Positions 32,384 to 57,572 of a stretch of 64,000 nt of DNA are shown piece after piece. The notes under the pieces were generated by a model that was not told the origin of the DNA, made no database searches, and saw only the letters and a program-made list of their open reading frames with translations. The number at the start of each line of letters is the position of its first letter. The first letter of the stretch is position 1. Made by a program: the position numbers and the translations under genes. This DNA is from Amphiscolops sp. MND2022 (Eukaryota): assembly GCA_964187785.1 (NCBI GenBank), contig OZ076409.1:44146001-44210000 (forward strand), given 5' to 3'.

Positions 32384-32870
32384 TTTTTAGTCGGCACTTT
32401 TCTAGGGAAAAGTGCCCGACACTTACAGTGGCTAGTTTTTTTTCTTTTTTTTTCGTCAGACTACAATCTCACTCTGATTGCGCCACTTTTCTTACAATCG
32501 AAACTACTAAAACTACTACCAAAAGGCCAAGCCCGGTCAGCGGAAATTAGTGCAAAATGGTCCTCCCTTTCATTTTTTACTATTTTAACGTAACCTACAA
32601 AACCGGACGTGCCTAAAGGGTTCCCCCTTTGTATTTTTTTGGGCACTGTGCGACTTTTTTTCGAAAAATTTTTTATTGTCTCAAAAGGATCCCCCTTCGA
32701 GTTTTTTCATATTTTGCAACAGAATGAATATATGTTAATAAAGCTCAAAGGGTCCCCCTTTTTACGTTTTTTGGCACTATGCGACGGTTTCTGGAAGAAG
32801 AAAAATTCAAAGATTCCAAGTTTTTTTCCAAGTTAGATATAGCGCCGACTTTAGACGTTTCCGTCTTGTT
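32384..32870 (-). mobile_element. Repeat family B copy inserted in a T run of Gypsy-1 RT
   Basis: Removing it rejoins SSPIF|ALSKPS (the SPIFAxRKP RT motif); no TSD. Tail hairpin GCACTTTTC-TAGG-GAAAAGTGC. Confidence 0.85.
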
Positions 32871-33044
32871 GCCCTTAGCAAGCCTTCAGCAAAACAACGT
32901 TTGTCAGTTGATCTTCGTCGAATGAAGTATATTTTTAAAGACGTTTGTGACAATCATCAGTAGCCTATCGCCACTTTGGCTGATGTCAATGCCCATCTAG
33001 ATAGGAAAACGTTTTTCGCGAAGTTAGATTGTAGTCAAGCCTAT

Positions 33045-33577
33045 CATCACAATGATCGCGCAGTAATTATTAGTTCACTTAGCACAGTGGATCAGTCTTT
33101 GCCTTCGAACTGGTCTGCGCGAGTTCGAATCTGCGACAGTGCTCTTTTTTAGTTTCTTTGTCTATTTATTCTTTCACCTTCAATTTGATCAATCACTTTG
33201 CACGACAGCAATTACATTGCTCATTTGATGTACAATATTTACCACCCATTGCTCACTATTGTAAACGTTGTTTTTACATACATGTAAACAACCAGTTGAG
33301 ACCTTTTTGTTGCCCCTTTGGCTTTAAATGCCTAATTTGCTGGTTAACAACCTGCTAACAACCAGTTCCCCACTATTGTCTCTAAACTCACTCATTCATA
33401 TTCATACCGTTACCGTGATAAGAAATCGTCATAAAACGTTATCAATCTTAGTCTTCTTGTTTGAGAACAAGACCTCAATCTTTAGCTTGAACTCTATCTT
33501 TGAGTTCCCTCAATCTATCTAGTTTGAACTCTATCTTTGAGTTTCTCCGTATTAGCTTGAGAGCTACCCCCAAAACA
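33045..33577 (+). repeat. BEL-1 5' LTR (5'-clipped)
   Basis: Matches 37520-38052. Confidence 0.95.
33073..33150 (+). ncRNA. Putative tRNA-derived Pol III unit in BEL-1 5' LTR (second copy at 37548-37625)
   Basis: A box TAGCACAGTGG at 33080-33090, B box GAGTTCGAATC at 33121-33131 at tRNA-like spacing, T6 terminator at 33145-33150. Cloverleaf stems are degenerate. Confidence 0.5.
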
Positions 33578-33578
33578 T

Positions 33579-33596
33579 TGGTGACCTCGACGTGAT
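33579..33596 (+). promoter_or_regulatory. BEL-1 primer-binding site, tRNA-Trp
   Basis: TGGTGACCTCGACGTGAT, one mismatch from the canonical Trp PBS TGGTGACCCCGACGTGAT. Confidence 0.85.
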
Positions 33597-36500: not shown

Positions 36501-37191
36501 ACCCAGGAAGGTGCTACCAACCCACTTGTACGATGAAGCCTCTTTGCAAGTCTTCTGTGATGCTTCCGAAAAGGCCTACGGTGCTTGTGTTTATCTGGTG
36601 TCAATCAAAGATGACGTTATATCTTCAACCCTCATCTCCTCCAAATGCAAGGTGGCGCCGATCAAACCATCAACTCTCCCTCGTCTCGAGCTCCTAGCAA
36701 TACACACTGGTGCCAAACTTGCAACAGCGGTCAAGGGGGCACTATCAAAATCAAAGCACGCACTGAACATCTCAGTGTTGTACTCAGACTCAACGATCGC
36801 ACTCTCCTGGATCAAAGCGGATCCCTCTCGATGGCACACATTTGTCTCCAACCGTGTCTCTCAAATTCAGTCAATGTTGCCAACAACTGAATTTCTTCAC
36901 GTGCCATCAGAAGAGAACCCAGCAGATCTGTGCTCATGCGGATTGCTAGCAACGCAGTTGGTGGCACAACAGAAATTCTGGTTTCAAGGGCCATCGTGGT
37001 TGGGATCATCCTTTCCTGATCAACCTCAGACTCTCCTCACAAAGGAGGAAGCACGCCAAGAAGTCAAATCCTTGACAGTGTTAACCTCACACAGTAATTC
37101 GTTAGTAGACTTGGACAATTTCAATTCACTAGTGAAATTGCTAAGAACTCTATGCATTTGCAAGGTAGCATTCAAGAAAGAGGAGGTTTAG
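33595..37191 (+). CDS. BEL/Pao Gag-protease-RT-RNase H polyprotein (no integrase)
   Basis: Gag KLPKLTLPSFSGEYTQWVSFWDQF (DUF1759-type) and three Cys/His knuckles; protease ALLDSGSQ; RT YLPHH, KLRVVFDAS, ADVAKMYRQV, FWVDD; RNase H VFCDASEKAYG, LPRLEL, SDSTIAL, ENPAD. Confidence 0.9.
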   Translation: MSTADAPGGSDGSGGVQKLAQLKRSRGAHRGVLTRRATAIRQAGGALEDVQATLEFLIDRRKMLTELDSQIQQLIEEDDELDADVDEAADVFLAAERAVKWCQARIKELQPSSPSAAAAPSCGSLTTKLPKLTLPSFSGEYTQWVSFWDQFTTLVDSKRDMTNVEKLSYLKLALKGDAAQIVSSLLVTDTNYDIAKRKLEEHYNNKRSIVKAHLAAIHALPAIKKESSVELRKLLESTNEHVQALEALGLPVDQWDAILVYWLLEKLDAVSRKQFELAHPGTDVLTFKELTTFMDRRSRALESSGDQHEASVPKTTPKKVLQEAYSSTVEHSTSCRMKECNGSHSISQCDRYKQLGTRERKAVVRKLKLCMNCLGRHFVADCPSKFSCRTCNGRHHTSLNFDRSVEQQSGVTSGATFSGPSVLLSTAMVGIDDAAGKTMMFRALLDSGSQTSFITADAASKLNIARSTVDVKISGIGGRQQAAKESVNLVIGPQKLPVTALVLNSIAGNIPSQFINLKQLKSMKSVALADENFHQPGPVQLLLGADVYEDLFLDERRKAHGLHYRKSIFGWVVTGVLSQVRAHQCQSFHVAVELDLARFWEVEEIPRVKLMSKENRQCAEHYDTTTYVADDGRITVHLPFKTEARPSNNFQTAKQRLFALERKLKDHGDVKQQYRDFIKEFLDMGHLEEARQTPGLCYYLPHHCVFKDSTTTKLRVVFDASSKSPNSYSLNDCLLLGPRLQDDVFDILIRFRLHQYALSADVAKMYRQVALDESDRDFHRILWRDFLTDEIRELRMTRVTYGVASSSYHSTQALQQSGKTNGSNPNTVNVILNDFWVDDLLSGADTLEEACLLQDDLIETLNKNCIPLRKWSSNEPQLVTRLPKDLQEAGKAYEINDKTHQIKTLGLTWHPLEDHFVYACSTPVLVVAKIIIQSCWKLDLEWNDTVPDDVSRAYTNWKDGMGSLSQLKIPRKVLPTHLYDEASLQVFCDASEKAYGACVYLVSIKDDVISSTLISSKCKVAPIKPSTLPRLELLAIHTGAKLATAVKGALSKSKHALNISVLYSDSTIALSWIKADPSRWHTFVSNRVSQIQSMLPTTEFLHVPSEENPADLCSCGLLATQLVAQQKFWFQGPSWLGSSFPDQPQTLLTKEEARQEVKSLTVLTSHSNSLVDLDNFNSLVKLLRTLCICKVAFKKEEV

Positions 37192-37292
37192 TGTGTAAAG
37201 AGAAGAACAAAGAAGCCAGCCAATATTTTAAATTTTTCTGCAGCTGCACACACCCAACTCAATTACCCGAAGTATACCCAATCCCTTTATGG

Positions 37293-37374
37293 ACGATGAT
37301 GGTGCAGTGGTGATTTCAATATTCCCTCATCAGAAGGTCTGGAGTTCGAATCCCCAAAACACAAAATTTATTTT
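37293..37374 (+). ncRNA. Second tRNA-like Pol III unit in the BEL-1 3' internal region
   Basis: A box TGGTGCAGTGG at 37300-37310; CTCAT...GAAGGTC-TG-GAGTTCGAATCCC resembles the 3' half of tRNA-Met; TTTT at 37371. Confidence 0.45.
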
Positions 37375-37506
37375 GTCTTCATTAAACTCAAATTCATGAC
37401 ATTTACTATTTGTATTATTATCGAGTGGTAGCATATTCCTTCAAACTGTATTAGCACGAGTGCTAACCATATACTCAATGAAGCTGATACTTCATGGCCG
37501 GCGGGA

Positions 37507-38052
37507 TGTTGGCGCATGACATCACAATGATCGCGCAGTAATTATTAGTCCACTTAGCACAGTGGATCAGTCTTTGCCTTCGAACTGGTCTGCGCGAGTT
37601 CGAATCTGCGACAGTGCTCTTTTTTAGTTTCTTTGTGTATTTATTCTTTCACCTTTAATTTGATCAATCACTTTGCTTGTCAGCAATTACATTGCTCATT
37701 TGATGTACAATATTTACCACCCATTGCTCACTATTGTAAACGTTGTTTTTACATACATGTAAACAACCAGTTGAGACCTTTTTGTTGCCCCTTTGGCTTT
37801 AAATGCCTAATTTGCTGGTTAACAACCTGCTAACAACCAGTTCCCCACTATTGTCTCTAAACTCACTCATTCATATTCATACCGTTACCGTGATAAGAAA
37901 TCGTCAATAAACGTTATCAATCTTAGTCTTCTTGTTTGAGAACAAGACCTCAATCTTTAGCTTGAACTCTATCTTTGAGTTCCCTCAATCTATCTAGTTT
38001 GAACTCTATCTTTGAGTTTCTCCGTATTAGCTTGAGAGCTACCCCCAAAACA
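37507..38052 (+). repeat. BEL-1 3' LTR (546 bp)
   Basis: TGTTGG...AAAACA; AATAAA at 37906-37911. Confidence 0.95.
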
Positions 38053-39787
38053 GCAAAGTTAGATTGTAGTCAAGCCTATCATGTGCCTCAGATGGCTGAC
38101 CCGTTATCTGTCCAACTACTCTCTTTGAACTTCCTTTCACGAATCTTTGCGTACTTACGCCTTGCACAAGGCCTTAGTTGTTCAATAAGAGCTTTAAGTT
38201 CGTTTATGCGAAAGTATTTTGTCCCTGCCAAGTTGATGACCAGCCTCTCCAATATGGAGACGTTCCGGGCAACGCTGCCGCTACATTTGAACACATTGTG
38301 GAAAAACTGCATCCTGAAAAAACAGCTCTGAATTTCACGTCCTCCAAGTGTGAGTTTGGTCTTAAGGAAATGACTTTCCTTGGCAGCACCATCTCAACCG
38401 AAGGAATGTCTCCGAATAAGACGGAAGTCTCTGACTTCAATTCGACCCTCAAATTTCTGAAAACTCCAAAACGGTTACACGTTCCATGGGCTTCATCAAA
38501 TATTTTCTGTCTTTCAATCCGAAATTGTGGAAAAACTCCTTGCTTTTTAAACAACTCCTCAGAAACGACACGGAATTTAAAATCACGGACGAACATCATA
38601 AATGCAATGCTGCCATCAAGAAAGATTTGGAACCGTTTTTGAATGCGTAACCATTATCACTCGTTCGCTTCATCTTGAATGCGCAGCCTGTCTGCTTAAC
38701 GATAATCAAGGTTTTCCGAGTCCTAAGGGTGGCATTGTAGGTCCTGAAGGACCGACAAGTTTTCTCTTTTTCTGTTGAAAACCACTACCGTTTTTCGGCA
38801 CTGTGTGACGTCGTTCGAAAAAAACATCATTTAATCAAACGTAAGCCCTTAATTTCAAAAAAAATTATTGCCTAGGAAAAAGCGTTGGCGAACCCAATGG
38901 GTCTTCTTTTGGGTTTTTCGGGAGCATATAAAAAGATTTTGTCATTTTTTGGTTTCGAAGACTCTTAACGGTGTTAAGACTTAAATCGGCCAGTCACATT
39001 GTGCCGAAAAAAAAAACAAAAGATGGCCGTCTATGCTCGCAAAACGCTTTGTTTCTGCTATTGATCAAGAAGGCATTTCGGTTTTAAAAACTTAGTATAG
39101 TAGCGACAAAACCTCCGTGGTGTACCCTTTGGTCTCCCCTCTACTTTTGCAAGTTTGCAAGCATAGAAGAGTTTGGCTTAGTGAGAGACTCAAACCCACA
39201 CACTAATCTTGCAATGAGAGTATAGACACTTCAGAAAACCTTATGGAAATCTGTCACTTCGCTGCTCTTTAAAAAAAGCTATTAATAAAGTCAGTTCTTT
39301 TCGAAAAGCGCCCACTTAGAAACGACACTCGACGAGGTGAAATTCTTTTGGTTCCCGAACCAGCGCTCTATCCACTAGGTCATCTTGAAGGATCTTGGTT
39401 CGAACTCACGACGTTCTGGTTTTAAAGCATGGACTCTTATCACCGAATCATACGGCGGCTGCTGCAGGAGTGTCTTGCGGAAATTGAACAAAAAGTGGAC
39501 CATTCAATATCGTCATGTGACAAGAAAGAACAAGACGGGAACGTTTAAAGTCGGCGCAACTCCTGAAGCTCAAAAAGCGCATACTTTTGAAATACGACCC
39601 GGAAGGTGATATGCAAAACTCCAAAAATCGTTTCGAAACACCCCAAGGGTGCCTTTCGTGCCCGGTAAACGCCTCAGAAGTTCAGATATAGCGTGCTGGG
39701 ACAAATGGGGGCAATTGTCTCCGAATTTCCGCCTCCTCCTTAGTAAAAGGCTTTATAGTTCAGATTTAACGTCAAACATTTGGATAT

Positions 39788-41848
39788 TGTTACGACTTAT
39801 ACATGGGTCGTTGTTTTGAGTACTATTTATCCTGACGGATTTAGTGGGCGTGCAAAAACTTCTCGTTTCATTTTCAAGAGTTGTTTCATTTCTTCGTTAA
39901 CACATTCTCCTGTTTTAGGTTTCAACATTTTAGGAAGTTCCCTCTGGGTTTCGGCTAGCAGATTCTTGATTCCAGAGGGTATTTCCTCTTTCACCGATGC
40001 CCTTAGACTTTCCAAAGAACAGTTTTAAACCCTAGGAGACTTGGTCCGGGAAGAATCCGCTGCCAAAACGTCCTAAATCTACGGGATTTTCATTTTCGAC
40101 TACAATTGGAGATACCAAGCTTCCACTTACGTTTTCACTGCTCTCTTGGGGGATATTTTGTTTGGCTTCTTGTAAAAAATGTCTGAAGGAAACTTTTGAG
40201 TTTGAAACTTGAATTGAGTATTGTCAGAAAATTGTGCCTCTTTTTCAAAATTGGGCAATATAAATACCCTCCTAGCATCATATGTTCACAATGGCGTGCC
40301 TAATTTATCCTCAAACGATTAATTATTTCCTGTCTTTTCGAGATAAAATTGATTTGAGTCCCCACTTTTACATCGACATTTAGTCAAAATCTAGTCATGA
40401 AATCCTGATTCTGACATTAGTCATCACCCATGCTCATATCATTTCATACCGGCGTCCTTTTATTTCCTCCGGAGCAGAAAGTAGATTTTACTTCGATCTG
40501 TCAAACTGGAAATGCTTTCCTGTTTCACTGCTTCGGTTGGCTGGAAAATCGACGCAGAGATGCCGCGGACGTGAACAACTAATGCCTGATTTTGAAATTC
40601 AACTCGAAATTTATTATGACTAATCTCCAAAATGACGATTTGGAATGATACTAGGAAAAAAGTCATCGATATGGCTGATATTACAATTATTCCTCAACTT
40701 CAGCCTAACATCATAGTAAAATATTTAGGTGGACATCTGTACGACGTTAAGTGGGCGTGAAAACTATGAACACTAGACCCAAGGTAGGTTAACCCAAATA
40801 TTGGTTAGCCCAATATTAACCTGCAACGAAAGGAGAGATGTTGTACTTGTATAAGCAACGAGCATTGAACTACATCTGGCAGACAACGGGGCATAGCAAC
40901 TGTTAGCTTCAAAGTTTTTGTCAATATAGTATGAATCTGACGACGTCGTGCCAACGTCGATTTGATCAAATAGTGGTATACGTTGGGTATAAAAACAAAC
41001 GTACAAAAATATCTTCAAGATACAAAGATACACAAATAAGATTTGTTATAACAAAAAAATGTGGCTTTCATTTGCTAATTCACACAATGTCTTAGTCTAG
41101 AATACACTCATGAAAATCGTTCCTAATCCGTTGACATTCAATTTTAATATTTTACTCTGAGAGTTAGACGTTAGAACTATGATTCTTTGATTCATTTTTT
41201 ATCAGAAGACGTACTTGAAACGTACGGTTAAACTCGATTTTGCCACAGATTCATTGTCAAAGCGATATTTTCTCGGTCTCAATATTGATTGAAACGCTTA
41301 ACTTTATAAATAGTGGACGTAGCGTGGTAGCGTGGACGTAAACTTGATGCTCGATCTAACTAGCCGCAAACCCGTTGGCATTCAATTATTTGATTTTGCT
41401 GTGTGAGTTAGGCGTTAGAACGAGAACTCTCTTATTCAATTCTTAATAGGTGACTTACCTGAAACGAACGGTTAAACTCGATTTTGGCGGAATTTCGTTG
41501 TGAATAAGATATTTTCATGGGCTCAATATTAAATAAAACTCTCAATTGTATAAATAGTGGACGTAGCGTGGACGTAAATTTGATGCACGATCTAACTAGC
41601 TGCTGGAGTGGTCGTAGTGCTGAAGTAAAATCAGAACTAGACTTGGCTAGTCAGCTAAGGAGTGACGTCACTCGGTCGTAATTTGGAATTTACTGGTTAT
41701 GCTACCACGAGACTGTGACGTCATAGGCAAATAGTGAAATCAGTTAGCGTAATTATAATTGTTTACCTAACGACGTAATATCGTCGTACTTTGCACTAAC
41801 TGCCTTTCAAAGTGCAATTAGGTTGCTTCTCGCAGAATAGGCGTAATA
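39788..41848 (-). repeat. Candidate ~2.06-kb 3' LTR of Gypsy-2
   Basis: Left end firm by homology to the PBS-adjacent LTR end. Right end inferred from CGTAATA (6/7 inverse of TGTTACG) followed by a pyrimidine-rich tract at 41849-41866 (PPT-like on minus). Confidence 0.4.
41161..41600. repeat. Diverged tandem duplication, period ~244 bp, with conserved TATA module
   Basis: Shared blocks ACGGTTAAACTCGATTTTG, TATAAATAGTGGACGTAGCGTGG and CGATCTAACTAGC; TATAAATA at 41305 and 41549. Confidence 0.8.
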
Positions 41849-42029
41849 CTTTATTCTTTGATTTCTGATGTGATTTTCAATATAGATTAGGCTATCACTT
41901 CCGGAAATGCTGATTTTAGTTAGGATTTCAGGTGGAGAAAGGACCTGAACTTGACGTAGCCTAAATGACTTAGCGGAAATGTGTGAAATTGTTATATTCT
42001 GATCATTTTTGTGTTAGTTTCCATTTTAG

Positions 42030-42439
42030 GTCTTTTAGAATCTGGTTGCTGTTTTCCTTTCAAGTCACCGTTGATTTTCACTAAAGTAGTTTGCGAGTTC
42101 ATTAGTACCAACTTTTTGATTTTGATGATTACCCATGGCCCCTTCTGGAATTCATTGTTCTTTAATTACAACACAGACCTGGAGCGGGCATGGGTTTTGT
42201 CCAATTCTACAGTTTCGAAACTCACTAACTTTCAATTTCATGCAGTCAGATTCCAAGGATTCTAGTGACAGCTCGAAACATTCTTCCTCGGCAGCAGTCG
42301 CTTCCACTGACGAATGCGATATCTCAAATATTATTCTCGGGTTATCTGGCTATTCCTAGGCAGCAGCTCTCTTGATCTGCCCTTCTTCTTCGCTCGTCGA
42401 CGATATGTCGATCAGTTCGTATATGTGTACATTTTTCAT
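42030..42439 (-). pseudogene. Decayed acidic ORF of unknown function
   Basis: MKNVHIYELIDISSTSEEEGQIKRAAA*E*PDNPRIIFEISHSSVEATAAEEECFELSLESLESDC...; several in-frame stops. Confidence 0.35.
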
Positions 42440-42790
42440 TGTTTTCTTCTTTTAGCTGCTGTTTTTTGCGTTCGATTGTTTAACAATGAATTTAGGATTT
42501 TTCCAGGATTGACCGGATATGTTCCTTTTTTCGGACTGGTTAATATTCTCTTTTAGTCCGTTCTCAATCCTTGTGGTTGACGTTTTGCCGACGTCGCGTT
42601 TTTATTGGCCGCAGGATTGATTTATTCCTGATAGCCGCAAATTTCAGTTTTTTGCTGACGTCAATATTCGACAGCGTTCTGCTATCGTCAATTCTATTGA
42701 TTAATTCTTTCTTTCGATCACTGTCGACGTCATAGTGGCGTCGAATCAGTGTTGGGCTGTTTTAACCCTGTCTTTGTTTTCTCTTTGCAG

Positions 42791-45700
42791 AGTGCTGTTC
42801 AGAAATTGACTTCCCCTCGCCGAGTAGATCCTGGCATGCTGAGTGGCAACGAGACTCAGTTCTTTTCCGAGGCTGACGCACGCGAGAGTGACGCCGATCC
42901 TGCTAGCGTTCAACCTGCTGTTGGTAAGTTCATCGTTCCCCAATCCATTTAACTTTTGTGGATAAATCTTCTCTGCAAACAGGACTTTTTGCGTTTTGTA
43001 CTTCCACAACTTAGTTTTCTTGACGCGTCTTTATCCGGAATGTGTTTTCAGTGCCTGCCTGAGAGCTTTCTACAGCTTCTGTCAAACCTCTCGTTGTCCC
43101 TCTTGCTGTGACTGTAATTCCTGCTGTTCTTGTTCCCGACACGGGTGCGTCTGCTTCTGCAGTGACCGCTGCTTCAAAAGAAGATTCAGATGTACCTCTT
43201 TCTGAGTTTCTTCCAAGCCAGATCCTGTTTGTGTTGTCCCGACTCACGGAAGTGAGGTCATCTCCCCCCCCGCAAGATGGGGCTGTGGAGGAGCCTCAGA
43301 TGGGTACCCCTGTGATAGGAGCTGATGGGAGTTGAACCCAATCTCCCCGATTGACCCGGTTCTTGCCTGATTTTGCCAAGACATTCGGCAGGTTGAAGTC
43401 TTCCCAGACTCCAAATCAAGGTGAGTGGTTTCCCCTTGTGGTTATTGTTTTTGTTTTGAATTTTGTTATTGGCGTTGTGACTCCTTTAGTTACAGTAAGC
43501 GAGTATTGCTTAAACGTTTTGTTGTTGTTGTTGTTGTTGTAATGTATCGTCTGTTCATGTTTGCAGTAGCGTCACTCAATCCTGATGTGTCTGCTGAGAC
43601 GACGTCTTTTAGGTAAGCGGCGGCGTACCGTTAAACTGTAAACTGCTCCTCTATCTCAAGCTTCCTAAATTGAGTGTACTGACGAAGAAAGGGCAGGTAC
43701 TGTGGCTGCGGCGTATACCTCAGAGCAAGCTCCCTTATTCGGGGAGGTTGTTGCCTCCGAGTTTGAGACGCGGACAGTTGAACCTTTCGTTACAAGTTGG
43801 TATGCATTATTTGGTTTCTTTGTTATTTGGTTAGGTAGACATATTATGGCGGTGTGGCATCGGGTTGGGTCGCTAATTGTATTTTGAACCTAACTTTGGT
43901 ATTTCTGGTATTTCTTCAAAGAATTGGTGACGCGTCTAGAAGCAAGTCTTGAAAGTGCTAGTCCCTCACGTCGGCGAATACGGGCACAAAGTTCGTGGAA
44001 TCGACTCCGTCACGACATGGTTCAGGGCCACCCTGTGTTCGTGCTCTTTGTGAGTGGACCCAGTTCTGGGACGGACACCGCTTTTTTCTGCACTATCTTT
44101 CAGGGAGACATATCGATTGCGACCAAAGGGGTGCACGAGTTTGGACCTCACTTTTCAAGCGACAAGCATCTGCTGTTGGATGTTGCTCATCGTGTGCCTC
44201 GAGGATTGCTGGTTTACAACGAACTGTTGGATCCAATGGAGTTGAGCTATGCACAGACGCTCGATTTCTTGACCCGGCCATTTAGGGAGAAGCCTGAAGG
44301 CTTCAGTTTCCCTGAGGATTTGTTGCCGTCATGTACCCGAAAAACTCGAGTGTGCCTTTGATGACTATAGTGAACTGCCTGGCCGAGTTGCTCCGAAATG
44401 GTGGGAGCTACTTTCTGCTGCAAAAGCTGTGGGGCCATATCCGGGCGCTTCTGTGTTCAAAGAGTCCACTGTACAGTTTGACGTGGAGTCGTGAAGATTC
44501 TTTGGTAAGTTTGGTTATTTGTGTTGATCGTGTAATTTAACAGTAACGGTTTTTTTGTTTAGGTGTTTTTGGTGGCTTTCCATCCCATTCATTATTTGTG
44601 TATTTCAGTCGCTGCTGTGCCAAGCTCCGTTTTCGCGTGTCCTCCGTTTGTCCCTCGCATTGGTGAGTTCAAGTCTGACAGCATGGTTTTTGTGGATGAG
44701 TCTGATGGGAAGGAATACGTTGTGTGGACTTGGGACAAGAATACCTTGCTGGAAACACGTGTGGATGTGCAGACTCTCGGCAAGAGTGTTCCCTTGGCAG
44801 AATTGGATTCGATGGCTTGCGTTTTCGGCGGTTTTCCGGGCGGTCAATTGCCTTTGTCTGTGGAGGGGGGTAGTACCTCTTCGTTGCCGGTGCTAACCGA
44901 CAATCGTGAGGATGGTCACTATTTTATCCTGAGCCGCAATTTCTCCGAGGACGTGTTGCTCAATTTTTACCATCAAGCCCATCAGGAAGTGCTGGGAATA
45001 ATGGAAGTGATACTGTGATTGACTATTTGATGCTCCGAAAAAGAGGGGCCATTCAAGAGCCGTGGCTCTAAGATGCAACTTTTCTGCGTCGTTGGGTTGT
45101 CGTTTGTCATGTGTCCTTCAGTGATCATCGTGATACTGCTTTCGAAGTGATTACTATGTGAAACTCTGTGAGGGAGTCGTTCGTTAGAATGGCCCCCAAC
45201 ACATAAAGAATGAGGCAGATATGGTTAGTGCCATTGTTGCTTTGTTTCTTTCAATCGTTTTGTTTTTCCCTTGAAAGTTATGGGGCGGGTGTTGGGTCAA
45301 TTGGCGTACTGGTGTGAGGTTTTGTAGTGTGTTTTAGATACGGGGTACGGACAGTCCTGTGTATTGTGACAATAGAAACCGTTTGCCGCTAGGACTTCTC
45401 GTCCATGTGCTTGATCTTTGTAAATGGACGTCGTCTTGCTGTCGCATGTTGGTAGTTTGAGGTGGGTCTTGTATGGGCTTGTTGTTCAGATCGCTGCACC
45501 TTTAAGAGACGGCTGTCTGGACGTGTGGATTACAGCTTCCATTGTTATATGGAGACTTGCCAGTTTGCATACTGTTTACTGTCCCGTACACGTCAGTTAT
45601 CTGATTTGCCCGATATGTCCGATTGGAAGGCCTGTATGGACACCTCAAACACTGTTGTGTTTAAGACGATAGACACTGCTGATTTTTTGTTAAGTCATGA

Positions 45701-46614
45701 ATTTGGTCAGGAGCTGCTGCGTGGTACGTTATGTGAGATGCAGGAAATTTGGAATCAATTCAGAGAGTTCATGGACCGTTTGGTCGACGTCTTCCTGTAG
45801 TCTAACATTGTGTCTTCAGATTTCCTGCAAGGCATATATCCTTTCTGTCTTAAACTACTGTTTGAGGGCAATGACCGTTACATCTTCCGCATCTTCAGCA
45901 AATTAGTACGGGTCCTTGAGAATTGCGGTTTTGACCAGTGAAGAATTAATGTCCGGGGTTGAGGAAGTTGTAACTTTTGTTGTGGACACTCGGTTACGCC
46001 CTATTGCCTCCGAGAATAGTGCTGAAAGAAAAGCTGACGTGATGAGGAACCTCCTTGCGGAATATAGTTTTTTGTGGTTTTAATGTGGATTTTGCTTTGA
46101 ATGGTTGTGTTGTGTCTGCCTCTGTGATTTCGTCTTGTTTGCGGGTGCAGAGCTACGCTGTTCTCCGGATTTCAAGTTGGGTGCTTTTTTCTCGAATCAC
46201 ACTATGGACTGTGTTCACAATGCCATAGCTGGTGCTCGAGAGTTTATGTACGCTGATAATGGTTTTGATTCTTCGAGTCGTATATGTGGTGGTGATCGTG
46301 CTGCTTTTGTTCAACGTTATGTTGATTTACTTGACGCTCATATGTCACGACAGGAAACTGTGTCCTACCAGCGATTTCGAGTCGCCAATCAACGTGTGCC
46401 TAGCAATGTTTCTGGTGTTGGTAGCAGAACTTCACCCTCTGTGCCTTCCTGTGGTCGTACTGCGCGGGGCGGTTCAGCTGTTGTCGGGGGTAGTTCCTCA
46501 AAGACGTCTGCAAAACGGCAATCGCAGCAGTCGACCAGGTCCACAAGAAGTTTGGTTTTGCTGAACGATGTGAAGAAGAATCCAAAGAAAGGGTCAACCG
46601 GCGCTTCAAGTTGA
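42791..46614 (+). pseudogene. Decayed multi-exon gene with C2H2/BED-like finger, possibly hAT-transposase-derived
   Basis: Acceptors at 42790, 43051, 43566, 44608 and ~45338; donors GTAAGT 42924, GTGAGT 43421, GTAAGT 44505, GTTAGT ~45224. Peptides AFFCTIFQGDISIATKGVHEFGPHFSSDKH and MVFVDESDGKEYVVWTW; basic Ser-rich C-terminus. Stops and frameshifts throughout. Confidence 0.55.
43519..43540 (+). repeat. (GTT)n microsatellite
   Basis: About 7 units. Confidence 0.9.
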
Positions 46615-49248
46615 GTTGAAAGAAATGATAACTTGCTTGATTACCATGGTGAACTTGTTTTTGATTTAGTATTTGTTCATTTGTAGTCTGTTATTTTTTT
46701 CCTGTCCGTATGGCCAGTTGATTGTGTTGTGGCTTATCAAAAATATTAGTGGCTCCTTCGTCAGGTGGTATGGATTCAAGAGATAAGAAGGAATGAAGGG
46801 TCTTAGTATTCTCTTAATTGAAAACTCGTCAAATCGGTTCCGTCTGGACTCTTGATATTGTCTTTTTCTCAGTGAGTCGAAGTCATAGCGTCAAGTCGTC
46901 TGAAGTCACGATTATCGTTAGGTTTAGGATTAAGTTCGTATGAAAGGATTGTCTTATGTGATTTGTTTATTGGTATTGGTTTCTGTTTCTTCGACCGTTA
47001 GTGTGACCTTTGATGTTTCTCTGTCGAGTGCAATTTGCGTTGCTTGTTCTTTTAGCAATAGAACTTCTTCCTCTGTTTCGATTGTTTCTTCTGGTAGGAA
47101 GAAGAGTTGTTCTTGATCAGCTACGTAGATTGACCTGAATTGTTCCGATCGTAATATCTTCTCTCAGTTTGAGTTTAACATTTTCTTTCATGTTTAATTG
47201 TTTTCTTGGGAAAACATGTGCAGCTGTCCGTCCGGCGTCCCAGCAACTTGCATTATGTGAAAAATGAATTTTAGGACATATTCACACGCAATCCATAATG
47301 TGGGAAGAATTGCTTTCGTTTGTAAGAAACGTGTGACTGACTTTTTGTATATTGCTAGGAAGTCTTTGCAGTAGATTGACATTTTTAGTTGCGCTGGGGA
47401 GAACACTTTTGATCCAAAAGTTACTGGTGCAAAGGTCTTTTCTTGGACTTTAGCTTCTTCTCATCGTTTTCATCTATCATTAGGACGTACCCCGAGGCGC
47501 GGTGGTTGGCATCCGTCATTAGGATGTGTGGCTGTTCAGTGAATGACTGTCTGATGGCCGATCCGCACACTTCCGCTAGCGCTGCGCTGATAGCTTTTTA
47601 GTTGTTAAGAAATTCTTCTGTGATCTTGATTTGTTTGTCTGCTTCTAGGAGTTCGTAGAAACCAGAAATGTTTTTCTGATAGGCGCGAGATGTAAATGCA
47701 GTAGTAATCATCTGAGATGAGCACATTCATTTTCCGTAGGTCGACGAGTAGACGCAATTTGCCAATTGGTTTCCGATGTGCAAAAATCGGGCTTGCATAT
47801 TTTGAAAATGGTAGAGTTGTTATAATGCCGTAACGATGCATAAACGCTAGTTCTATTTTCTTTCAAGTTTATTGGTACAGGTAGGCTTTCGGTGTATACT
47901 GGACTTTCGTCCTTCGGAGTTAATTTTATTTTACGAAGCTGTTATTAATCCCGATGCCCAGTCGGTAGCGGGCGAAGATGTCCGTGTATTCGACTATTGT
48001 TTGTTCGAGTAGTTCCTTCTCTTTGCCTTCTATCTGGGACCCTTCCCATTGGAACATGTCGAGCAACATTTTCCTTGATTCTGCAGTTTTGGTTGGGTGT
48101 AATTCTTCTTTTTTGATGAGTTCACGAAATTCATTCAATATTCGTTGTTGTATTGGCGTATGTTTCTCCCCAATGCCTGAATTTTACGGTGCGGGAAACC
48201 AGAAACTTTCTTCGTTTTCGTCATCTCACTTGATTTCATGAGTTCGTTGACATAAATATGTGTATCATCAGGTTCTTGAAGTATTTTTAGGGCGGCGGCG
48301 GCAATGGGTCGCATCTGTTTCGTATTGTTTGGTTTGAGGATTTGGAGTTCCGGTACTTTGGTATGGTTTTCGATGGTATACGGAAATTCTGTCAGATTGG
48401 CCATTCTGATATTCATTTGTTTATTGTGTGCTGTTGCCATCGCTGGTGCAACCATTATGCTTGCCGTTTCGTCGAATTTTGGTTGTGGTTGTACGTCGTT
48501 GGTTGGTTCCTGTGACGTCGTTTGTGTTGGTTGTGGCGACTATTGCTTTGGAGGTCGTCGTTTGTTGAGGGGTTCGTATTTGATGCTCTTCGGATAGTAT
48601 TTGGAGCTGTTTGAGGTTACAATTCTTCATTTCATCTGTCATTGCTAACGTAATTCGGAAGTCAGGGAAGTTGATCGTTTCGTTAGCTGTGTCGATCACC
48701 GCCTGATGGTTCCTCATGAAGTTTAGGCCTATTATGCGAAAGGACGTTTTCGAGCGGATGACAAACGTGACCGTGAATATGTAGGTTCCAAATTTGAATT
48801 GGATGCCGCTATGGCAACGGGTTGTTCCAATTGGGCGTTTGCTTATTCGATCCTGAAAAGCGGTTGTGGATCTTTAGTTTGCTAATGACAAATATTCCTC
48901 AGTTCATTTTGATCATGTTGTAGTCTGACCACGACATTGCATCGATGAATGCTCCTGAGTCTACTAACCTATGCATGGTTATTTCACCAAGTTTGAGGGA
49001 CAGGTAGAGCATTCGTCTACGTTTTTTGAGTACATTTAAGGATTGTAGGGTATACAAGCGTCGCCATCTTTGTCAGTTATGTATTCTTTGATGGAATTCA
49101 ACGAGACGGGGAAATCATCTGGGAATATAGATTCTTTTGTTGTATTGGAGCCGTTAGTATCTTCCTTGGGTGGTTGAGACGTGAGTTGTTCGTTGTGGGC
49201 GTTTTCGGTTTGATCCACAGGAGGAGCCAATGGTTGTGCTTTGAAGGT

Positions 49249-52200
49249 GAGGTCATCTACCACGAAGTCACGCAGGATCACTGGGCTTGCTAGCGGATGA
49301 TGATGATCGTGGGCAGCAGATTGAAGAGCCTTGACAGCTTGGTGAGCAGAAGATCGAATGCCGAACGTGACACGGGTCATGCGCCAGACCTCAATTGGTT
49401 CATCAGGCTGATCGCGCCATAGAAGTCGATGGTAGTCCCTGCTGCTTCGCTTCAAACACACTTGACGGTACATCTTCTCCACATCAGCACAGAGAGCTAT
49501 TGTGTGAAAGCGAAACCTAAGCAAAATATCAGTTAGATTGTCTTGAAGAGTAGGACCAGTCATAAGTGAGGCGTTGAGGGACCACCCAGATGAAGATTTT
49601 GCGGAGCCGTCGAAGACCACGCGAAGCTTGTGTGTTGAACTATCCTTCATCACATTGTGGTGGGGAAGGTAGAAAACTTGATGATGTGGTTTATCGAGAT
49701 CCTCAGTTGGGACTCGTTCCATGTGACCAGCATCCTTGTATCCATTGATGTAGTCAGCGTAGTCTTGCTTGAGACCAGTAGACTGTAGTCGTTTCTCCAG
49801 TGCCAGAAAGCGTCGCTTCGCCTGATTGAAGCTTTCACCAATTGGAGGTGCATCTGGGTTGAAGGGTAGTTCCACTTCGTAGCACCCATCAGCTGTCCTA
49901 GACGTCGTCTGAGTGAAGAAGTTCTCGCATTGCTGCTTTTCAGGGGTGAATTGCTTGGATCCAGCGCCAGGCACCTCCTCGATTTCCCAGAAGCGAGTCA
50001 GAAGCTGATCGACAGAGGAGACATCAGTTGATGTTGAGTGTAGAACGATGTGAAGTGATTGCTCAGAGCTAGAGTCAGAAGCTGTAGATGAGTGGCCTGA
50101 TTGAACCAGCTTAGGGTTGAGTGTACCGCTGAGAACCCAACCGCACATGGTTTCCCTGGCATAAAGCTTGGGTTGAAGCTGAAACTTGTTAGAAAGTATA
50201 ATTGATTCATAAAGATCAATACCAATGAGGATATCGATTGGACCAGGAGTGTGGAACATGGGATCGGCCATTTGCACACCATCTAATTGAGTGAGTTCAG
50301 CAGCATTGATGGGCTGTGAAGGTAGATCATAGGTGATTGTTTTGAGAACTAGAGCAGTTGTAGTTAGCAGTTGCTCCTTGTAGGGGCTGTAGAGGTCCAA
50401 GGTAACCACTGCTGAGGGACGAGGCATGCGCGTGCGCGCTATCCCAGTGTAGGTCGCTGCTGTCCGCTTTGTGGGTAGACCGAGCCGCTGGGCTGCCTGT
50501 GTGGTCATGACGTTCACCGTTGAGCCAGAATCAAGAAGTGCTCTGAGATTGACCCATTTATCATGCCTGTCACGAGCCATTATCTGAATAGTACTGAGGA
50601 TACCTTGAGTCGTTACAATGGGTGTAGAGTCATTGACATGCCCATTGCGTTCCAGTGGCTGGTCATTCTTTTGTAGCAGGCTATGATGTTTCCCACTGCA
50701 CGTACGACACGTCTTGTTGCTTGGGCAGGACTTCGGACGATGGCCAGAAGAGAGACAGTTGAAGCACAAACCCAGATCCCGAGCCTTGTCTGACCTCTGA
50801 ACAGTTGTCATCTCATTGAAGGCTGAGCACTTGTAAATCGGATGTCCAGAAGTGTTGCAGACTGCACAGGGTTTCGATTGGGCGCCAAGATAGGTTTGGT
50901 TGGTTGATTGTGGTTTCGTCTGGGTTTTGGAACTCTCAGATGTGGCCTTGAGCGTAGTTGCCTCTAGAGCTCGAACACGAGTTTCTAGAAAGGTAAGAAG
51001 ATCATCAAGTTTTTGCGGCTCAGAAATACTTACCTCGTTGGGTGCATGCAACTCCCAATGCTTCCTGGTTTCTTGATCCAGCTTTTCGGCAATGAGAAAG
51101 ACCAGTAGATGATCTTCATTGACGCCTAAATTGCGCAGTGCCACAATGTGTTCCATCATCGTTGTTTGCAACTTTCTCAAACCAGCTGCGTCCTCCGTCT
51201 TGAGGTAGGGTAGGTGTGAAGGGACTGGAAACGTGCTCGCATGATGCATCGCTTGTTCTCGAAACGAGCTTGAAGAAGTGCACGAGCTGCAGCGTAGTTG
51301 TCATCGGTGATTGAGAGCTCTGAGATCACCTTGGCATCCTCCCCCCGCAGTGCACGCTTCAAGTAGTTGAGCTTCTGCGAGTCGACCAGAGAAGGTTAGG
51401 CGTCAACGGAGGCATTGAACTGATCCCAGAATGAAGTCCATTCGGCATACTTACCGTCGAACAGAGGCAGGTCGAGTTTGGGGAGTTTCACACGAGTAGC
51501 TGATCCAATGACGGCAGCTGGAGAAGACACGGTAGGACCACGTATTTCACCTCCGCTAGCTTGTCCTGAAGCTCCTCCATGAGACACAAGCAAGAGTCCT
51601 GTTCCTCTGAGCGTTCATCATCGGGCAAGAGACTGAGCAGTTGTTGATCCAACCGAGACAAAAGAGCAATTTTGTCAACGAACCTCTCGTAGCAGCCACG
51701 AAGTTGTTGAACGGCAGTCAAGTTGTCGGTAGCATCTTGGGCCTGTTGAAGCAGTTCGTCTATGCGCTTCATGAGCTTTGTCGCGACCCCTCGTTGAGTG
51801 GAGCGGGATTGTTTCACTTTGGTGAGATCATCACCAGCAGTGGTATTTTCCATCTTTGAAGTGTCGTCACTGTTTCCACCAGTGCTTCTAGTTGCAGGCA
51901 TTGGGGAAGGGAAAGTAGTTCGAATGAATCGACAAAGGGTTCCAGAAGATCAGAGTTAAATCGTGAAGGAATAGTCAGAGGAGAGACTGATTCTGTAGTG
52001 AGTTCGCGGCACCATATGTTTAGTGATCAACTAAACTGTTGAACTAAGATGAAAACTTATTGTTGTAATAATGAATTGAAGGTGCTTGCTGCAGTGGTGG
52101 TTTTACAAAGAGTGAGAACGTTCAGGAATACAGTTAAAGAATCGAGTGTTTACATACAACACCAGTCAAATATGAGTTCTTCAAACTTCGAGTATGTAAA

Positions 52201-52306
52201 CAGACATATCAATCAATATGTGCACTTTTTGTATCATGTGAGTGTCAATCAAATAAAAATGTTTGTAAACAACAAATGTCAGTCAAACTAATTGTATCAG
52301 TGAACA
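49249..52306 (-). mobile_element. BEL/Pao element 'BEL-2', 3'-truncated in RT, inserted in Gypsy-2
   Basis: 290-bp LTR at 52017-52306 with imperfect TGTT(C/T)A(C/G)TGAT inverted ends. PBS TGGTGCCGCGAACTC (tRNA-His-like) at ~52000-52014. Frameshifted gag from 51901 (KLPKLDLPLFDGKYAEWTSFWDQF), ALLDSGS, YLPHH, KLRVVFDGS; ends at FVVDDL. Confidence 0.9.
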
Positions 52307-53137
52307 GGGAGGATTGGTCGTATAAGTGTGGTCTATCCCAGTGGTCTCATCTGTAGTCTTTGTCGAAGACTTAGACCCGTTCTTGGTTTGACTCTGGGAG
52401 TGCCTCTTTAGTAGTCAAGTATTGGTCTTCGGATTCAGTAATCAATTGAGGGTAATCCCTTTATTGTTCATTTTTGGTATTGTGTTTCATTTTGGCTGCG
52501 ACTTTTTGTCGTCCTTGCCAGTCCTCTGTTGGAGTTCCATTTCAATTTGTCGTCGAGCTTTGAGTGTATTCGATAGGGGATCTTCTACTGAGTACACTCT
52601 CGGGTCTACTGTTTCCCCGAAACACAGGCGCAGCGTGACTATTTTTTTGTTCTCGTTGATTGTCCTGTTTGCCGTTGGTTGGACGGGATTATCGATCCTT
52701 TGCTCTTGTTGTTGGTGATGCCTAAATCGTGGATCGTTGGCAGCGCAGCATTGGCTCCATTCCAACAATCTTCTGTTTTTGTGGGGTTTGCCGCATGTGT
52801 TGCATTTGAGCGTGTTGTCTTCGCGTTCTCTGGTTTGTCCGTTTTTTTTTCGAGTTTGATGCCACCTATCTCTCCTCATTTTCCTGCGTTCTGCTTAAAA
52901 GTGACCAAATTTATTACAATAAGAACAGTACCCCTTTTTGGTATTTTGGGTTCTGTCCTCTGACGGTTTTGCCTCGACCTGAAGCTGAGTGGTCTCAATT
53001 TTATTTAGGGGATCCAGAGTTTACGAAGACGAGAGTCACTTCATCTGGGTTTCCTAGGCCGTTGAGTCACTTTTTTTTCTCCAAATGGAGTACTCTGTCG
53101 TTATATGGTTTATCTTCCAGGTGCGCTCTGTTAAGTA

Positions 53138-53309
53138 CCGTGGATACCGGATATGTTCAACGTCAGGGAAATGACATTGGTGTTTCTCAAAATCGAAACT
53201 TCTTTTATCCGGGTATTAAAAGGAATGGAAATGCCAGTCCAGACCAAGATACGCCTTGACTATATGCGGATATTTCCTATAAGCGATTTTTTTGTATCCC
53301 GATCAACTG
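53138..53309. mobile_element. Tc1/mariner(pogo)-type MITE in Gypsy-2 gag
   Basis: TA on both sides; imperfect TIRs CCGTGGATACCGGATA / TATCCCGATCAACTG. Excision restores gag IKKI|LNRAHLEDKPYND. Confidence 0.8.
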
Positions 53310-54332
53310 TATCTTTTTAATGTGATCTGGCATTTTGGCGTATATGGTTTTGTCGATGAACTGTAGGGCTTCTGCCCCAAAAGCCTCTTTCGTGGTTTTT
53401 TCGAGTAAATCTAGGAATTCATGTAATCTTTGCGTTGTGGGATCGAATTTGAGAGCGTCCCTTTCGCATCGTGGTTTTGCCATAGACAGGTAGTCTCCAA
53501 AGGGAAGTTTGAAAACCGTCGTTATTTCGTCCAGTGAGTGCTTTTTAGACTCTTCTATATTGCAAAACGCTTCCAGGGCGTCACCACGGAGTAGAGAGTG
53601 GAAATAGTTTCTTTTTTGTATTTCCGCGAGATGTGGGTTCATCTTGATGTTATTACAAAAAAGGACCTCAAACAACCCGATTTTTTCAGATTTCCTATCG
53701 AAAGTTGGGAGTGACGATGTTAGTGCTTTTGGCATGGGTAGCGTAGAGTTGTCGTTTTTATCTGGCGCGAAAATTGTCCTATCAACTATGGGACCCTCTT
53801 TGGACGCTGATTGGCTCTACGACCTTGTTTTTGCAGTTTTGGGTTGGTTTGTGGAGTGATTTAAAAATCCTGTCACCATGTTACGACTACGAATTGTTTA
53901 TGCGTACACTATTTATCGGTCGTTGTTTCGAGTACTATTTATCCTGACGACGTGTAAAAGCTTCTTGTTTCATTTTCAAGAGCTGTTTCATCTTCTTAGT
54001 TAACACATTCTCCTGTTTTACGTTTCAACAATTTAGGAAGTTCCCTCTGGGATTCAGCAAGCAATTTTTTGAATTCAGAGGTTACTTCCTCTTTCAAAGA
54101 TGCTCTTAGACTGTCCAAAGATCAGCTTTCAACCTTGAAAGATTTGGCCCGAGAAGGACCCGCTGCCAAAACGTCCTGATCTACTGGACTTTCGTTTTCG
54201 ACTACGTTGGTGATACCACGCTTCCTTTTACGTTTTCACTGCTCTCTTGGGTGATATTTCTTCTCTTTTGGCTTCTTGTAGACATTGTCAGAAGGCAACT
54301 TCAGAGTTAGAAACATGTATTGAGTATATTGA

Positions 54333-54532
54333 NNNNNNNNNNNNNNNNNNNNNNNNNNNNNNNNNNNNNNNNNNNNNNNNNNNNNNNNNNNNNNNNNNNN
54401 NNNNNNNNNNNNNNNNNNNNNNNNNNNNNNNNNNNNNNNNNNNNNNNNNNNNNNNNNNNNNNNNNNNNNNNNNNNNNNNNNNNNNNNNNNNNNNNNNNNN
54501 NNNNNNNNNNNNNNNNNNNNNNNNNNNNNNNN
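54333..54532. other. Assembly gap (200 N)
   Basis: Run of N. Confidence 1.
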
Positions 54533-55473: not shown

Positions 55474-57075
55474 TTAATCTGTGTTAACTCTTAATGAGAT
55501 TCGACAACATGGGTTGACAGAACTCACGACGCTGAGCTTGTGAATAAGGGAGCTGTCCAGCACAAAACTGTTGGTGCCCGACCCCAGTTGATCATTCTCT
55601 ACTGACCACTCCGTCTGTCCAGGGTCCAATATCACACACATTTTCTTGCCTCCATAGTTTGCGTAGATTTTCAGTTTTTTAGCGCTATAAGACTGAAACA
55701 TTATCGACCATGAAGTTTTGTTCAAGCGTTGAAAACTGGTTTAACTGGATAAAATTAAACAAAAAATACTTGTATTTTAGAAAATTTTCCCGGGAAAACG
55801 AAAAAAGATTTATTGCTGATCTACTTTTGTTGAATCTTTAGAAAATTTGCTTGGAATTTTTATCAAGCACCGTTGAAACAGCTACTTCAATAATCAAGAC
55901 TATTGAATTATTCGCACACTGGAATGTTCACATAAAGAGGCAATCAAAAGGTGTCGAGTGATAAATTGAAACTTTGAGACTGGAAAAAAACTAGTCAATT
56001 TTTTGGTGTCAGCTGATTTTAGACTACGAAAAACAGCGGTCGCAGTCCTAACCTCGGTGTTGGTTGTGAGTTTCAAATGAGTAATTTTGAAGGGTGTCTC
56101 GGCAAATCCTACTTTGAGGAGTTCCAGCTTGGACATTGTGTTGATTCCACTAGGAATATCTCCTCTGAACATGGCGCCATTAATGTTGAAATTTTCATTG
56201 AATACTTGGGTCCACATTTCACGGGTCAGTGCGTCTGCTTGCATCAGTTTGGAGCCTGTGTTGCGGTTGTTGACAGAGTCATCGTGGTTCAAAAGCTTGC
56301 CAATTAATTTTTCAGTATCAGCTTTGTACTTCAACGGGTGCTCTTGATGTGCGTGCCATACCACGTCGAAATCATAGCATGGCACCAAAAATGTGTTGGG
56401 GTTGTGGCTTTTGAGGAAACAATATTTTTTGTACCTCTGAACTGCTTTGTCGATGAAAACTCGGTCGAGATAATGGGGTAAGGAAACTTGATAAAAGAAG
56501 GTTTTCTGTCTCGAAGAAGCACTAGCAATGTCGTATGTAATCCTACTCTCGAAAGAGGACACTTCTTCACTCTTCGCACTGGTGGTTGCTGCATTTTTCA
56601 GGTCTATTTCGAAAGCTTCATTCGGATATTCTTTCTCCCAAGCTTTTTTAGCAGCACTTAAAGCTTTGGAGTACTCATTCATTGTTGTGAGTTCGTGGTC
56701 TACTATACAGCCCAAAAGGGCCATACAGTCTTTCTCGTAATAGACTGGTGCTAACATGTGCACATGCCACGCCCACTGAATATCCAGCGGGGCGACCCAT
56801 TTTGTGATATTAGGACCGGCTTTGGCCGCAAGAGGGAGCCAGAATTTCTCATAGCGATAAATTGCCAAATCTATCAGAGGTCGTTCGTAGAGCTGGGGGT
56901 ATCTGCTGACCAGTCGGAGAAAATCGATGCTGTTTCGAGATGCTTCAACTAAATTAACGGAGAACTTGATTTTCTTCTCATTGAATTTAGCGGTGATAAT
57001 TTTGCTCTCGCTGTAGGCAGGAGGAGGAGTATCAGCCTTAGAAGATTCAGGCAATGTCGATGATCCCTCCGCCAT
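55474..57075 (-). CDS. GRDP-like (glycine-rich domain-containing protein / DUF1399 family); main exon 57075..55918, probable next exon from 55692; 3' end uncertain
   Basis: Two homologous halves: AIYRYEKFWLPL...VAPLDIQWAWHVHMLAPVYYEKDC and AVQRYKKY...LVPCYDFDVVWHAHQEHPLKYKAD...LNHDDS...GAMFRG. Acceptor TTTTCTTTTCAG 6 nt before the ATG; phase-0 join AGT|GTGCGA...TTTCAG|TCT. Confidence 0.8.
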
Positions 57076-57572
57076 AACACCCTGAAAAGAAAAGACACGT
57101 CTGATCAAAAGCCGCTCCTTCGAGAATCATTATATTTCGAGAACTGCAATAAGTTTGGATACAAATCTCAAAAAGTTCAGTTTTCTGGGGTTCAATCAAT
57201 TACTGAAAAAAATCAGGATGTCTTCCAATCCCTAAAAATTTTGCGAAAGTAGCAAAATTGCAAAAACAGTAATTTTTAATGGAAGTTTTCAAATCTTGAA
57301 CTATACGCTCTGTTACTTGGATTGTAAATGGTGATGACCTTTTGCATTCGTAGTTGAAAGCAAGCTGAATCAATAGACACTCGTTCACTTTGTCAAAAAA
57401 AGTCATCCTTCCTACATAGCCGCTGAAAGAACAAGATAGGTAAATAATTGTAAGTAATCTGGGCAGAACCAAAGTTGACTGTCCGCGGCACATAAAATTT
57501 CAATTTACGCAGGAATATTTTTTAAGAGTCGACTTGTAAACTTTCCTCTTCTGGGGAAACACTCAAGTATCG

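Follow-up and report, generated by a model that had tools for sequence, protein, structure and literature searches.

Conserved antisense open reading frames (aORFs) are described from Ty3/Gypsy retrotransposons of plants and fungi, and two accounts call their origin unknown and report no similarity to other transposable elements (TEs) (PMC7264820, PMC11963269). They list Retand (TRP28/PF04195), maize Grande (gene23), rice RIRE2 and fungal Boty as examples of the aORF-3R arrangement (PMC7264820, PMC11963269), in which the antisense gene lies between pol and the 3' long terminal repeat (LTR). An element of this layout class is present in Amphiscolops sp. MND2022, on contig OZ076409.1, within a stretch of 64,000 nucleotides (positions 44,146,001 to 44,210,000; hereafter the window). 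Here, too, a Ty3/Gypsy element has an antisense gene between pol and the 3' LTR that is conserved lineage-wide. The corresponding region measures ~5 kb here and 2.9–6.6 kb in Retand; for Grande gene23 an own promoter and a nuclear product are given, and a DNA-binding regulator has been proposed for aORF-3R (PMC7264820, PMC11963269). The Amphiscolops cassette differs from aORF-3R in the six introns of its antisense gene, in a recognisable, if only probable, donor class, and in a sense open reading frame (ORF) that stands head-to-head with the antisense gene and overlaps the LTR; TRP28 (PF04195) had no match in Pfam scans of the proteins of cassette elements. A further difference is the host, probably an animal to judge from its BEL/Pao elements. 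A class II transposase is here the likely donor of an antisense accessory gene of an LTR retrotransposon, and one class of mobile element therefore appears to have domesticated another. No report of a Gypsy element with a gene of hAT descent was found in the literature covered, Repbase, Dfam, closed journals and supplements lying outside this coverage, and nothing comparable was seen in PMC5408684, PMC8220671 and PMC9341512.

In the reading that we prefer, with somewhat more confidence than doubt, the window holds a broken copy of a cassette-bearing Gypsy clade in which a disarmed, hAT-derived antisense protein and a sense protein would keep the element transcribed. That the block between pol and the 3' LTR is cargo of the element itself was the main proposal of an earlier reading made from the letters alone (the sequence-only reading), and it is supported by comparison with other copies. 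With positions 42700–46700 as query, a DNA search raised 840 candidates, of which 40 were scored and yielded 85 matches, and 45 loci spanning the identity range were sampled with 20 kb fetched around each. At 43 of these 45 cargo-anchored loci the 3' LTR is followed by the region of the sense ORF, then by the antisense gene and finally by pol, and cargo without such flanks occurred only as rare fragments (2/45): one copy is cut within exon 7, and one fragment (L093/L094) has no pol within 20 kb. A second sample, anchored on the integrase, comprised 20 loci from the 150 best matches to a 110-aa integrase piece and, at 96–100% identity, covers close relatives only; all 20 had the sense ORF as well as exons 4, 5 and 7, and none ran directly from pol to the LTR. 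In this Ty3/Gypsy clade the cassette is a constant component of the element. Passive carriage of the block, as a nested DNA transposon or host fragment, could be read from L093/L094 and from the nested insertions present in the window, but we regard it as hardly credible in view of the fixed position in three deep clades, the purifying selection and kept splice sites described below, and the lack of terminal inverted repeats (TIRs).

A pair of LTRs of at least 1 kb was found at 40 of the 45 loci, and 30 of these 40 copies are flanked by an exact 5-bp target-site duplication (TSD), the ends of the remaining 10 being damaged or missed by the script. Intact elements measure ~15–16.6 kb with LTRs of 1.2–2.5 kb, many LTR pairs being 99–100% alike; the families are abundant, young and recently copied. 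The LTRs are of the TG..CA type, and these, the short TSD and a tRNA primer-binding site (PBS) are as expected for Ty3/Gypsy elements. The three deep clades share the PBS TGGTGACAGGAG, a match to tRNA-Leu(CAG), which ARAGORN called at 2/5 loci. The pol of one copy (copy 5; 1646 aa) contains Asp_protease (weak), RVT_1, RT_RNaseH, Integrase_H2C2 and rve, i.e., the Ty3/Gypsy order. As to a polypurine tract, only short and variable purine-rich stretches were seen, and these lie within the sense ORF. Trees of reverse transcriptase (RT), integrase, exon 4 and exon 7 (20–22 copies), those of the cargo being flagged for long branches, resolve the same three deep groups, and this congruence of pol and cargo fits a single old capture. 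The proposal of the sequence-only reading that this is an LTR element of >11 kb with accessory genes of its own was borne out, with ~11 kb between the LTRs of intact copies. Its label "giant" had to be dropped: PMC6431247 sets the cut-off at an internal length of >20 kb, and the elements measured here reach 15–16.6 kb as a whole. Burro and Ogre are likewise large Gypsy elements with additional coding capacity, and Ogre has long LTRs and an internal region of 11–13 kb; Burro exceeds 30 kb, against ~16 kb here, and its extra domains reside mostly in a sense polyprotein (PMC6431247).

Four cargo copies at ~13.8-kb spacing (G000:C149:12622-54413) probably form a tandem array with shared LTRs, and an open frame with pol at G000:C89:75708 extends over 2167 aa, roughly what gag and pol would measure if joined in a single frame. 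The pattern of the tRNA-Leu-like 3' end has 849 matches genome-wide, and a long tandem array of such ends, spaced at ~296 bp, is located at G000:C8:35587799-35639269.

The antisense gene is complete in the young copy L005, where it has 7 exons, 1087 codons without an internal stop and introns of 69–143 nt. Across 40 copies, the reference counted in, GT/AG was found at 460 of 473 aligned splice sites. For the window copy the spliced antisense gene proposed from sequence is confirmed, with its TGA at 46612–46614, GT/AG aligned at 11 of 12 splice sites and the AG of the twelfth read directly. In a sister clade, exons 4–7 form a single intronless frame of 880 aa (P0273), which occupies the same antisense position at 5/5 loci. 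P0273 is collinear with exons 4, 5 and 7, and the space left between them fits exon 6, which itself had no BLAST match; this intronless alignment confirms the three splice junctions nearest the end of the gene. Introns that are antisense to the genomic RNA escape splicing and so persist through reverse transcription. Their loss or gain is odd, since the genomic RNA is unable to splice antisense introns. An intron-poor clade (L141-L150; P0273, P0287-P0322) has no introns between exons 4 and 7, and the L095-type clade shows a fused N-terminal part and an apparent additional intron within exon 5.

Within the clade of the window copy, the ratio of nonsynonymous to synonymous substitution rates (dN/dS) is 0.02–0.17 for exons 4, 5 and 7 where dS is measurable; against the distant intronless family, near saturation, it is 0.25 and 0.42. 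The antisense gene is under purifying selection. Truncated transposases that act as repressors offer a precedent for a cassette that limits its element, the protein repressing its own promoter or the antisense RNA feeding small-RNA silencing. Silencing by double-stranded RNA has indeed been raised for antisense transcription (PMC7264820). Such self-restriction nevertheless appears quite unlikely, since selection at the protein level shows that RNA alone is not the point, and since the families are abundant and young.

Relatives of exon 7 are numerous, 481 having been retrieved at E ≤0.001 among 50%-identity representatives; there was no named member in those read from 10 clusters, and a search for longer homologues of this exon found none. 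The best match of one protein, P0126, in the Amphiscolops genome is only 32%, so that a different species or assembly may have the cargo family as well; a metagenome scan with P0126 gave 598 pattern matches, none of them confirmed.

A hAT origin of the antisense gene had been noted by eye ahead of the structural comparisons. Exon 4 encodes a CxxC..H..H pattern, invariant in 13/13 rows, whose leads in Atlas (0.79–0.84, lead level only) were BED and ZBED-like clusters, ZBED5/GTF2IRD2-like ones included; against Pfam zf-BED it had no match. The exon-5 model (predicted local distance difference test, pLDDT, 63) displays an RNase H-like strand order, and its RNase H-like fold is clear. Foldseek placed Hermes chains at ranks 1, 2, 4, 6, 7 and 10 for this model (best E 0.012), and VIA placed Hermes at rank 22 (Z 5.7, root-mean-square deviation (rmsd) 10.5, 173 residues, chain 148–353), the only one among the VIA matches listed that spans nearly the whole model. 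For the exon-7 model (pLDDT 88), Hermes was rank 3 of 48,161 in VIA (Z 4.8, rmsd 6.1, 179 residues, chain 365–609), no other protein aligning at length with both models, and Atlas returned helical-repeat clusters only, at low recognition. Because two separate predicted models thus fall in order on Hermes (148–353 and 365–609), downstream of a BED-like finger, hAT descent is favoured, and we consider it likely. The predicted succession, from a BED-like finger through an RNase H-like core with its helical insertion to a C-terminal helix, would be that of hAT transposases (Hermes; PDB 4d1q, 8edg, 8sjd) and of domesticated ZBED proteins. Unlike hAT transposons, the cassette shows no conserved D-D-E, no PF05699 match and no TIRs, and is mobile only within the retrotransposon. 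The absence of TIRs had already been stated in the sequence-only reading, and no inverted pair bounds the block; an 8-bp TSD was not separately searched. Given hAT descent, the cutting activity has very probably been lost: in the columns predicted to be catalytic from Hermes motifs and secondary structure, the two D residues are kept in 0/31 and 0/31 rows and the E in 3/39.

Several results weigh against this assignment. The Hermes scores are weak and none is significant alone (E 0.012, Z 4.8 and 5.7, rmsd 6–10 Å); generic RNase H-like folds stand above Hermes for exon 5 in VIA (Z up to 7.2), and the exon-7 model had no match in Foldseek. The catalytic columns were set by motif and secondary structure rather than by residue-level superposition, and in copy 5 two of them are occupied by Glu. 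No hAT match was obtained for the antisense protein with Pfam profiles, or in phmmer and profile searches of PDB. The hAT C-terminal domain PF05699 was found in 0/96 members and not in P0273, hhalign against a 7-row alignment of Ac/Hermes-type ORFs from the Amphiscolops genome gave a probability of at most 0.2%, and none of 18 ORFs taken from 30 PF05699 loci was matched by hmmsearch. A search of the genome for a donor with PF14291 likewise gave no match, its control being equally silent, and a degenerate hAT C-terminal pattern had 1 match in the genome. This silence at the sequence level, the Atlas leads to ZBED5/GTF2IRD2-like clusters, and the several introns and catalytic loss, which are common among host genes, would also suit an origin from a domesticated host ZBED-type gene, or from a non-hAT protein with a C2H2 finger and an RNase H-like fold. 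Such an origin is improbable, however, as 43/45 cargo loci are inside Gypsy elements with no host copy among the top-scored genome candidates, and as two separate models lie in order on Hermes.

The second gene of the cassette was studied in sense frames of at least 150 aa, which were picked at 38 of the 45 loci; one mis-picked gag start was dropped, leaving 37. The intact sense ORF encodes ~210–300 aa and is acidic and rich in Ser, Pro and Thr. In 32 of the 37 ORFs the N-terminal region carries a hydrophobic-then-acidic motif (28 I/V-x-I-S-S-D/E, 4 looser), which is preserved as LIDISSTSEEE in the window remnant; the translated window, with 127,996 positions, contains 3 comparable patterns. 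With its hydrophobic core followed by a run of Ser and acidic residues it resembles what we take to be a SUMO-interacting motif, and is regarded here as a putative SUMO-interaction-like motif. The sense ORF is under purifying selection (dN/dS 0.09–0.18 where dS could be measured, in 9 of 14 pairs), and its frame crosses the LTR start in identical phase in 17/17 copies. ALSQ/VSQ near its end was rejected as a protein signal because the LTR start itself encodes these residues. An env-like role was rejected, no transmembrane segment having been found in 5/5 sense ORFs tested (top 19-residue hydropathy 0.48–1.52). In human immunodeficiency virus, nef overlaps U3, and foamy virus has an internal promoter. 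The cassette resembles such retroviral 3' accessory genes in a sense ORF that runs into the 3' LTR and in a probable internal promoter, and differs in that there is neither env nor homology. A conserved ORF with a SUMO-type motif that overlaps the LTR suggests a specific route against host silencing. The sense ORFs of L095, L097, L099, L101 and L109 have a C-terminal CxxC and a helical segment that were not seen in the clade of the window copy.

The gap between the two genes is likely to serve as a putative two-way internal promoter for both. GACGTC occurs there 3 times in 361 bp, compared with 20 times in the 63.8 kb of called window sequence, and the ACGT motifs of the cAMP response element (CRE) type pointed out by the sequence-only reading are indeed there (TGACGTCA at 42656, GACGTC at 42590 and 42726). 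The gaps of distant families (L095, L097, L141, L147; in L109 as a one-base variant) contain CTGGCAGAC, which is also present in the LTR of the window copy at 40876–40884. CRE repeats as a lineage-wide feature were rejected, being confined to the clade of the window copy.

In 13 of the 20 integrase-anchored copies, the sense ORF is 93–98% identical to that of copy 5, and the antisense exons ~47–70%. The DNA of L158 and L164 is 92–100% identical to copy 5 over the LTR, the sense ORF and most of the gap, and 44–71% over the antisense gene, with the integrase core again at 96–100%. Near-identical elements swap the antisense gene as one module, likely by template switching between co-packaged RNAs, and diverged alleles therefore persist within one backbone. 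The lineage offers many young copies and natural alleles that range from ~20% to 99% identity, some genes having introns and others none, and its natural swaps leave the backbone unchanged; this opens the accessory function to comparison and knock-down. The swapped module includes the C-terminal tail of the integrase (78–92% identity, versus 96–100% for the core). Together with the DNA-end binding established for transposases, this would fit a disarmed transposase acting as an integration cofactor that holds the ends of the complementary DNA or tethers the integrase to chromatin. We judge such a role unlikely, as the TSDs have no obvious sequence preference by eye and the swap breakpoints perhaps lie just where homology peaks.

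According to the preferred reading, in which the cassette keeps its element transcribed, a hAT transposase gene would have been taken up a single time, in reverse orientation, by an ancestor older than the split of the three deep subclades, and the gap between both genes would drive each of them. The finger, the basic clusters and the probable loss of the active site suggest that the antisense product is nuclear and binds DNA; this predicted BED-finger protein would bind DNA, probably the promoter regions of the element itself. Through its SUMO-type motif, which suggests a link to the chromatin silencing machinery, the acidic sense protein might engage SUMO-dependent chromatin machinery. Both products would then act in the nucleus, and self-activation or anti-silencing is the most likely function of the cassette, the steps from structure to function being ones that we infer. 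Two observations count against this model: TGACGTCA is missing from 5/13 gaps, all of distant families, and antisense alleles only 55–60% identical occur in elements whose LTRs and promoter are 94–100% identical, which sits poorly with tight family-specific recognition of the LTR and also speaks against an allele-specific recognition of a strict kind. More doubtful, and offered tentatively, is the wider possibility that an animal retrotransposon lineage domesticated a DNA transposon's enzyme, joined a SUMO-binding acidic partner to it on a shared two-way promoter, and employs the two against silencing, elements trading the DNA-binding half like alleles in an arms race with their host. VANC of VANDAL/MuDR elements provides a functional model, being also a transposon-borne accessory protein that was likely captured and repurposed, one of several such captured proteins described; it is MAIN-like and belongs to DNA transposons, and the likeness drawn here is one of proposed function (PMC13547354). 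HBZ of human T-cell leukaemia virus type 1 is another antisense gene near the 3' end, an analogy of layout only (PMC11963269).

The window element itself is an old, broken and dead copy of this Ty3/Gypsy clade (Table 1). The sequence-only reading had placed the end of one LTR at 39788 and that of another, running to the gap, at 53879, and both are present as a repeat pair of LTR type (39803–40221 and 53915–54327; 82% alike across 425 bp); the PBS adjoining 53879 on its inner side was verified as well, and its sequence TGGTGACAGGA is complementary to the 3' end of tRNA-Leu(CAG). An assembly gap of 200 N begins at 54333 and cuts the 5' LTR. No LTR sequence was found in the window to the right of this gap, and therefore the candidate TSD in the left flank, GATAT, has no counterpart for comparison. 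The first bases of the 3' LTR and the sequence directly preceding it are deleted, its border at ~42189 being set by alignment to copy 3. Of the "5 kb of non-Gypsy sequence" described earlier, ~350 bp belong to the ~2.4-kb left LTR. The sense ORF, which had been presented as an open frame at 42439–42030, has several internal stops here, and its end lies inside the LTR.

Mapping of the proteins of a young relative located gag on the minus strand at 54282–52646; pol residues ~598–791 and ~1042–1609 are absent, so that most of RT and the whole integrase are gone from this copy. The Gypsy remnants reported earlier stand for gag, protease, the RT start, RNase H and the pol tail (46875–46979), but the long frame of 754 aa at 49036–51300 is part of a nested fragment of BEL/Pao type. 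Copy 2 shows Gypsy sequence that passes from 49252 to 52306 without a break. Gag begins within the LTR in every clade examined, and both LTRs of the window copy encode its N-terminal part (39810–40169, 53885–54282). A tandem duplication (41125–41603, ~240 bp, 77% alike) is located inside the 3' LTR.

Table 1. Features of the Ty3/Gypsy copy and its cassette, in positions of the window.
Feature	Positions	Strand	Remarks
3' LTR, ~2.4 kb	39788..42189	-	5'-terminal bases deleted; carries gag N-terminus copy (39810-40169) and sense ORF end
Sense accessory ORF remnant	42030..42439	-	internal stops and deletions; end within LTR; retains LIDISSTSEEE
Head-to-head gap	42440..42805	.	GACGTC at 42590, 42657, 42726; putative promoter
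Antisense exon 1	42806..42923	+	start codon lost in window copy
Antisense exon 2	43052..43420	+	low complexity; one stop
Antisense exon 3	43567..43795	+	KRRR basic cluster in young copies
Antisense exon 4	43922..44504	+	BED-like C2H2 finger, then helical region; one frameshift
Antisense exon 5	44609..45223	+	predicted RNase H-like core, start of helical insertion; frameshifted
Antisense exon 6	45338..45419	+	
Antisense exon 7	45490..46614	+	helical domain aligned to Hermes 365-609, basic Ser-rich tail; frameshift, stops
Gypsy pol remnants	46875..49251	-	protease, RT start, RNase H, pol tail; integrase and most of RT deleted
Nested BEL/Pao fragment, foreign to the family	49250..52305	-	one ~290 bp LTR, PBS, gag-protease-partial RT
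Gypsy gag body and gag-pol junction	52306..53878	-	PBS TGGTGACAGGA at 53868-53878
5' LTR, 3' part, codes for gag N-terminus	53879..54332	-	ended by assembly gap

In the surroundings of this element, a BEL/Pao element at 33045–38052 has repeats of 533 bp that are 98.5% alike and a gag-pol frame of 1211 aa that ends ahead of the integrase. It is nested in an older Gypsy pol remnant (~31800–38620), ~25 nt of which are found on both sides. On the minus strand, a frame of 408 aa at 55900–57126 is GRDP-like (PF07173, E 5e-46) and probably represents a host gene. A cluster of nested and tandem short repeats extends from 59385 to 63585, and the same repeat family recurs at 13860–14345, 18436–18790, 26920–27100 and 32384–32870.

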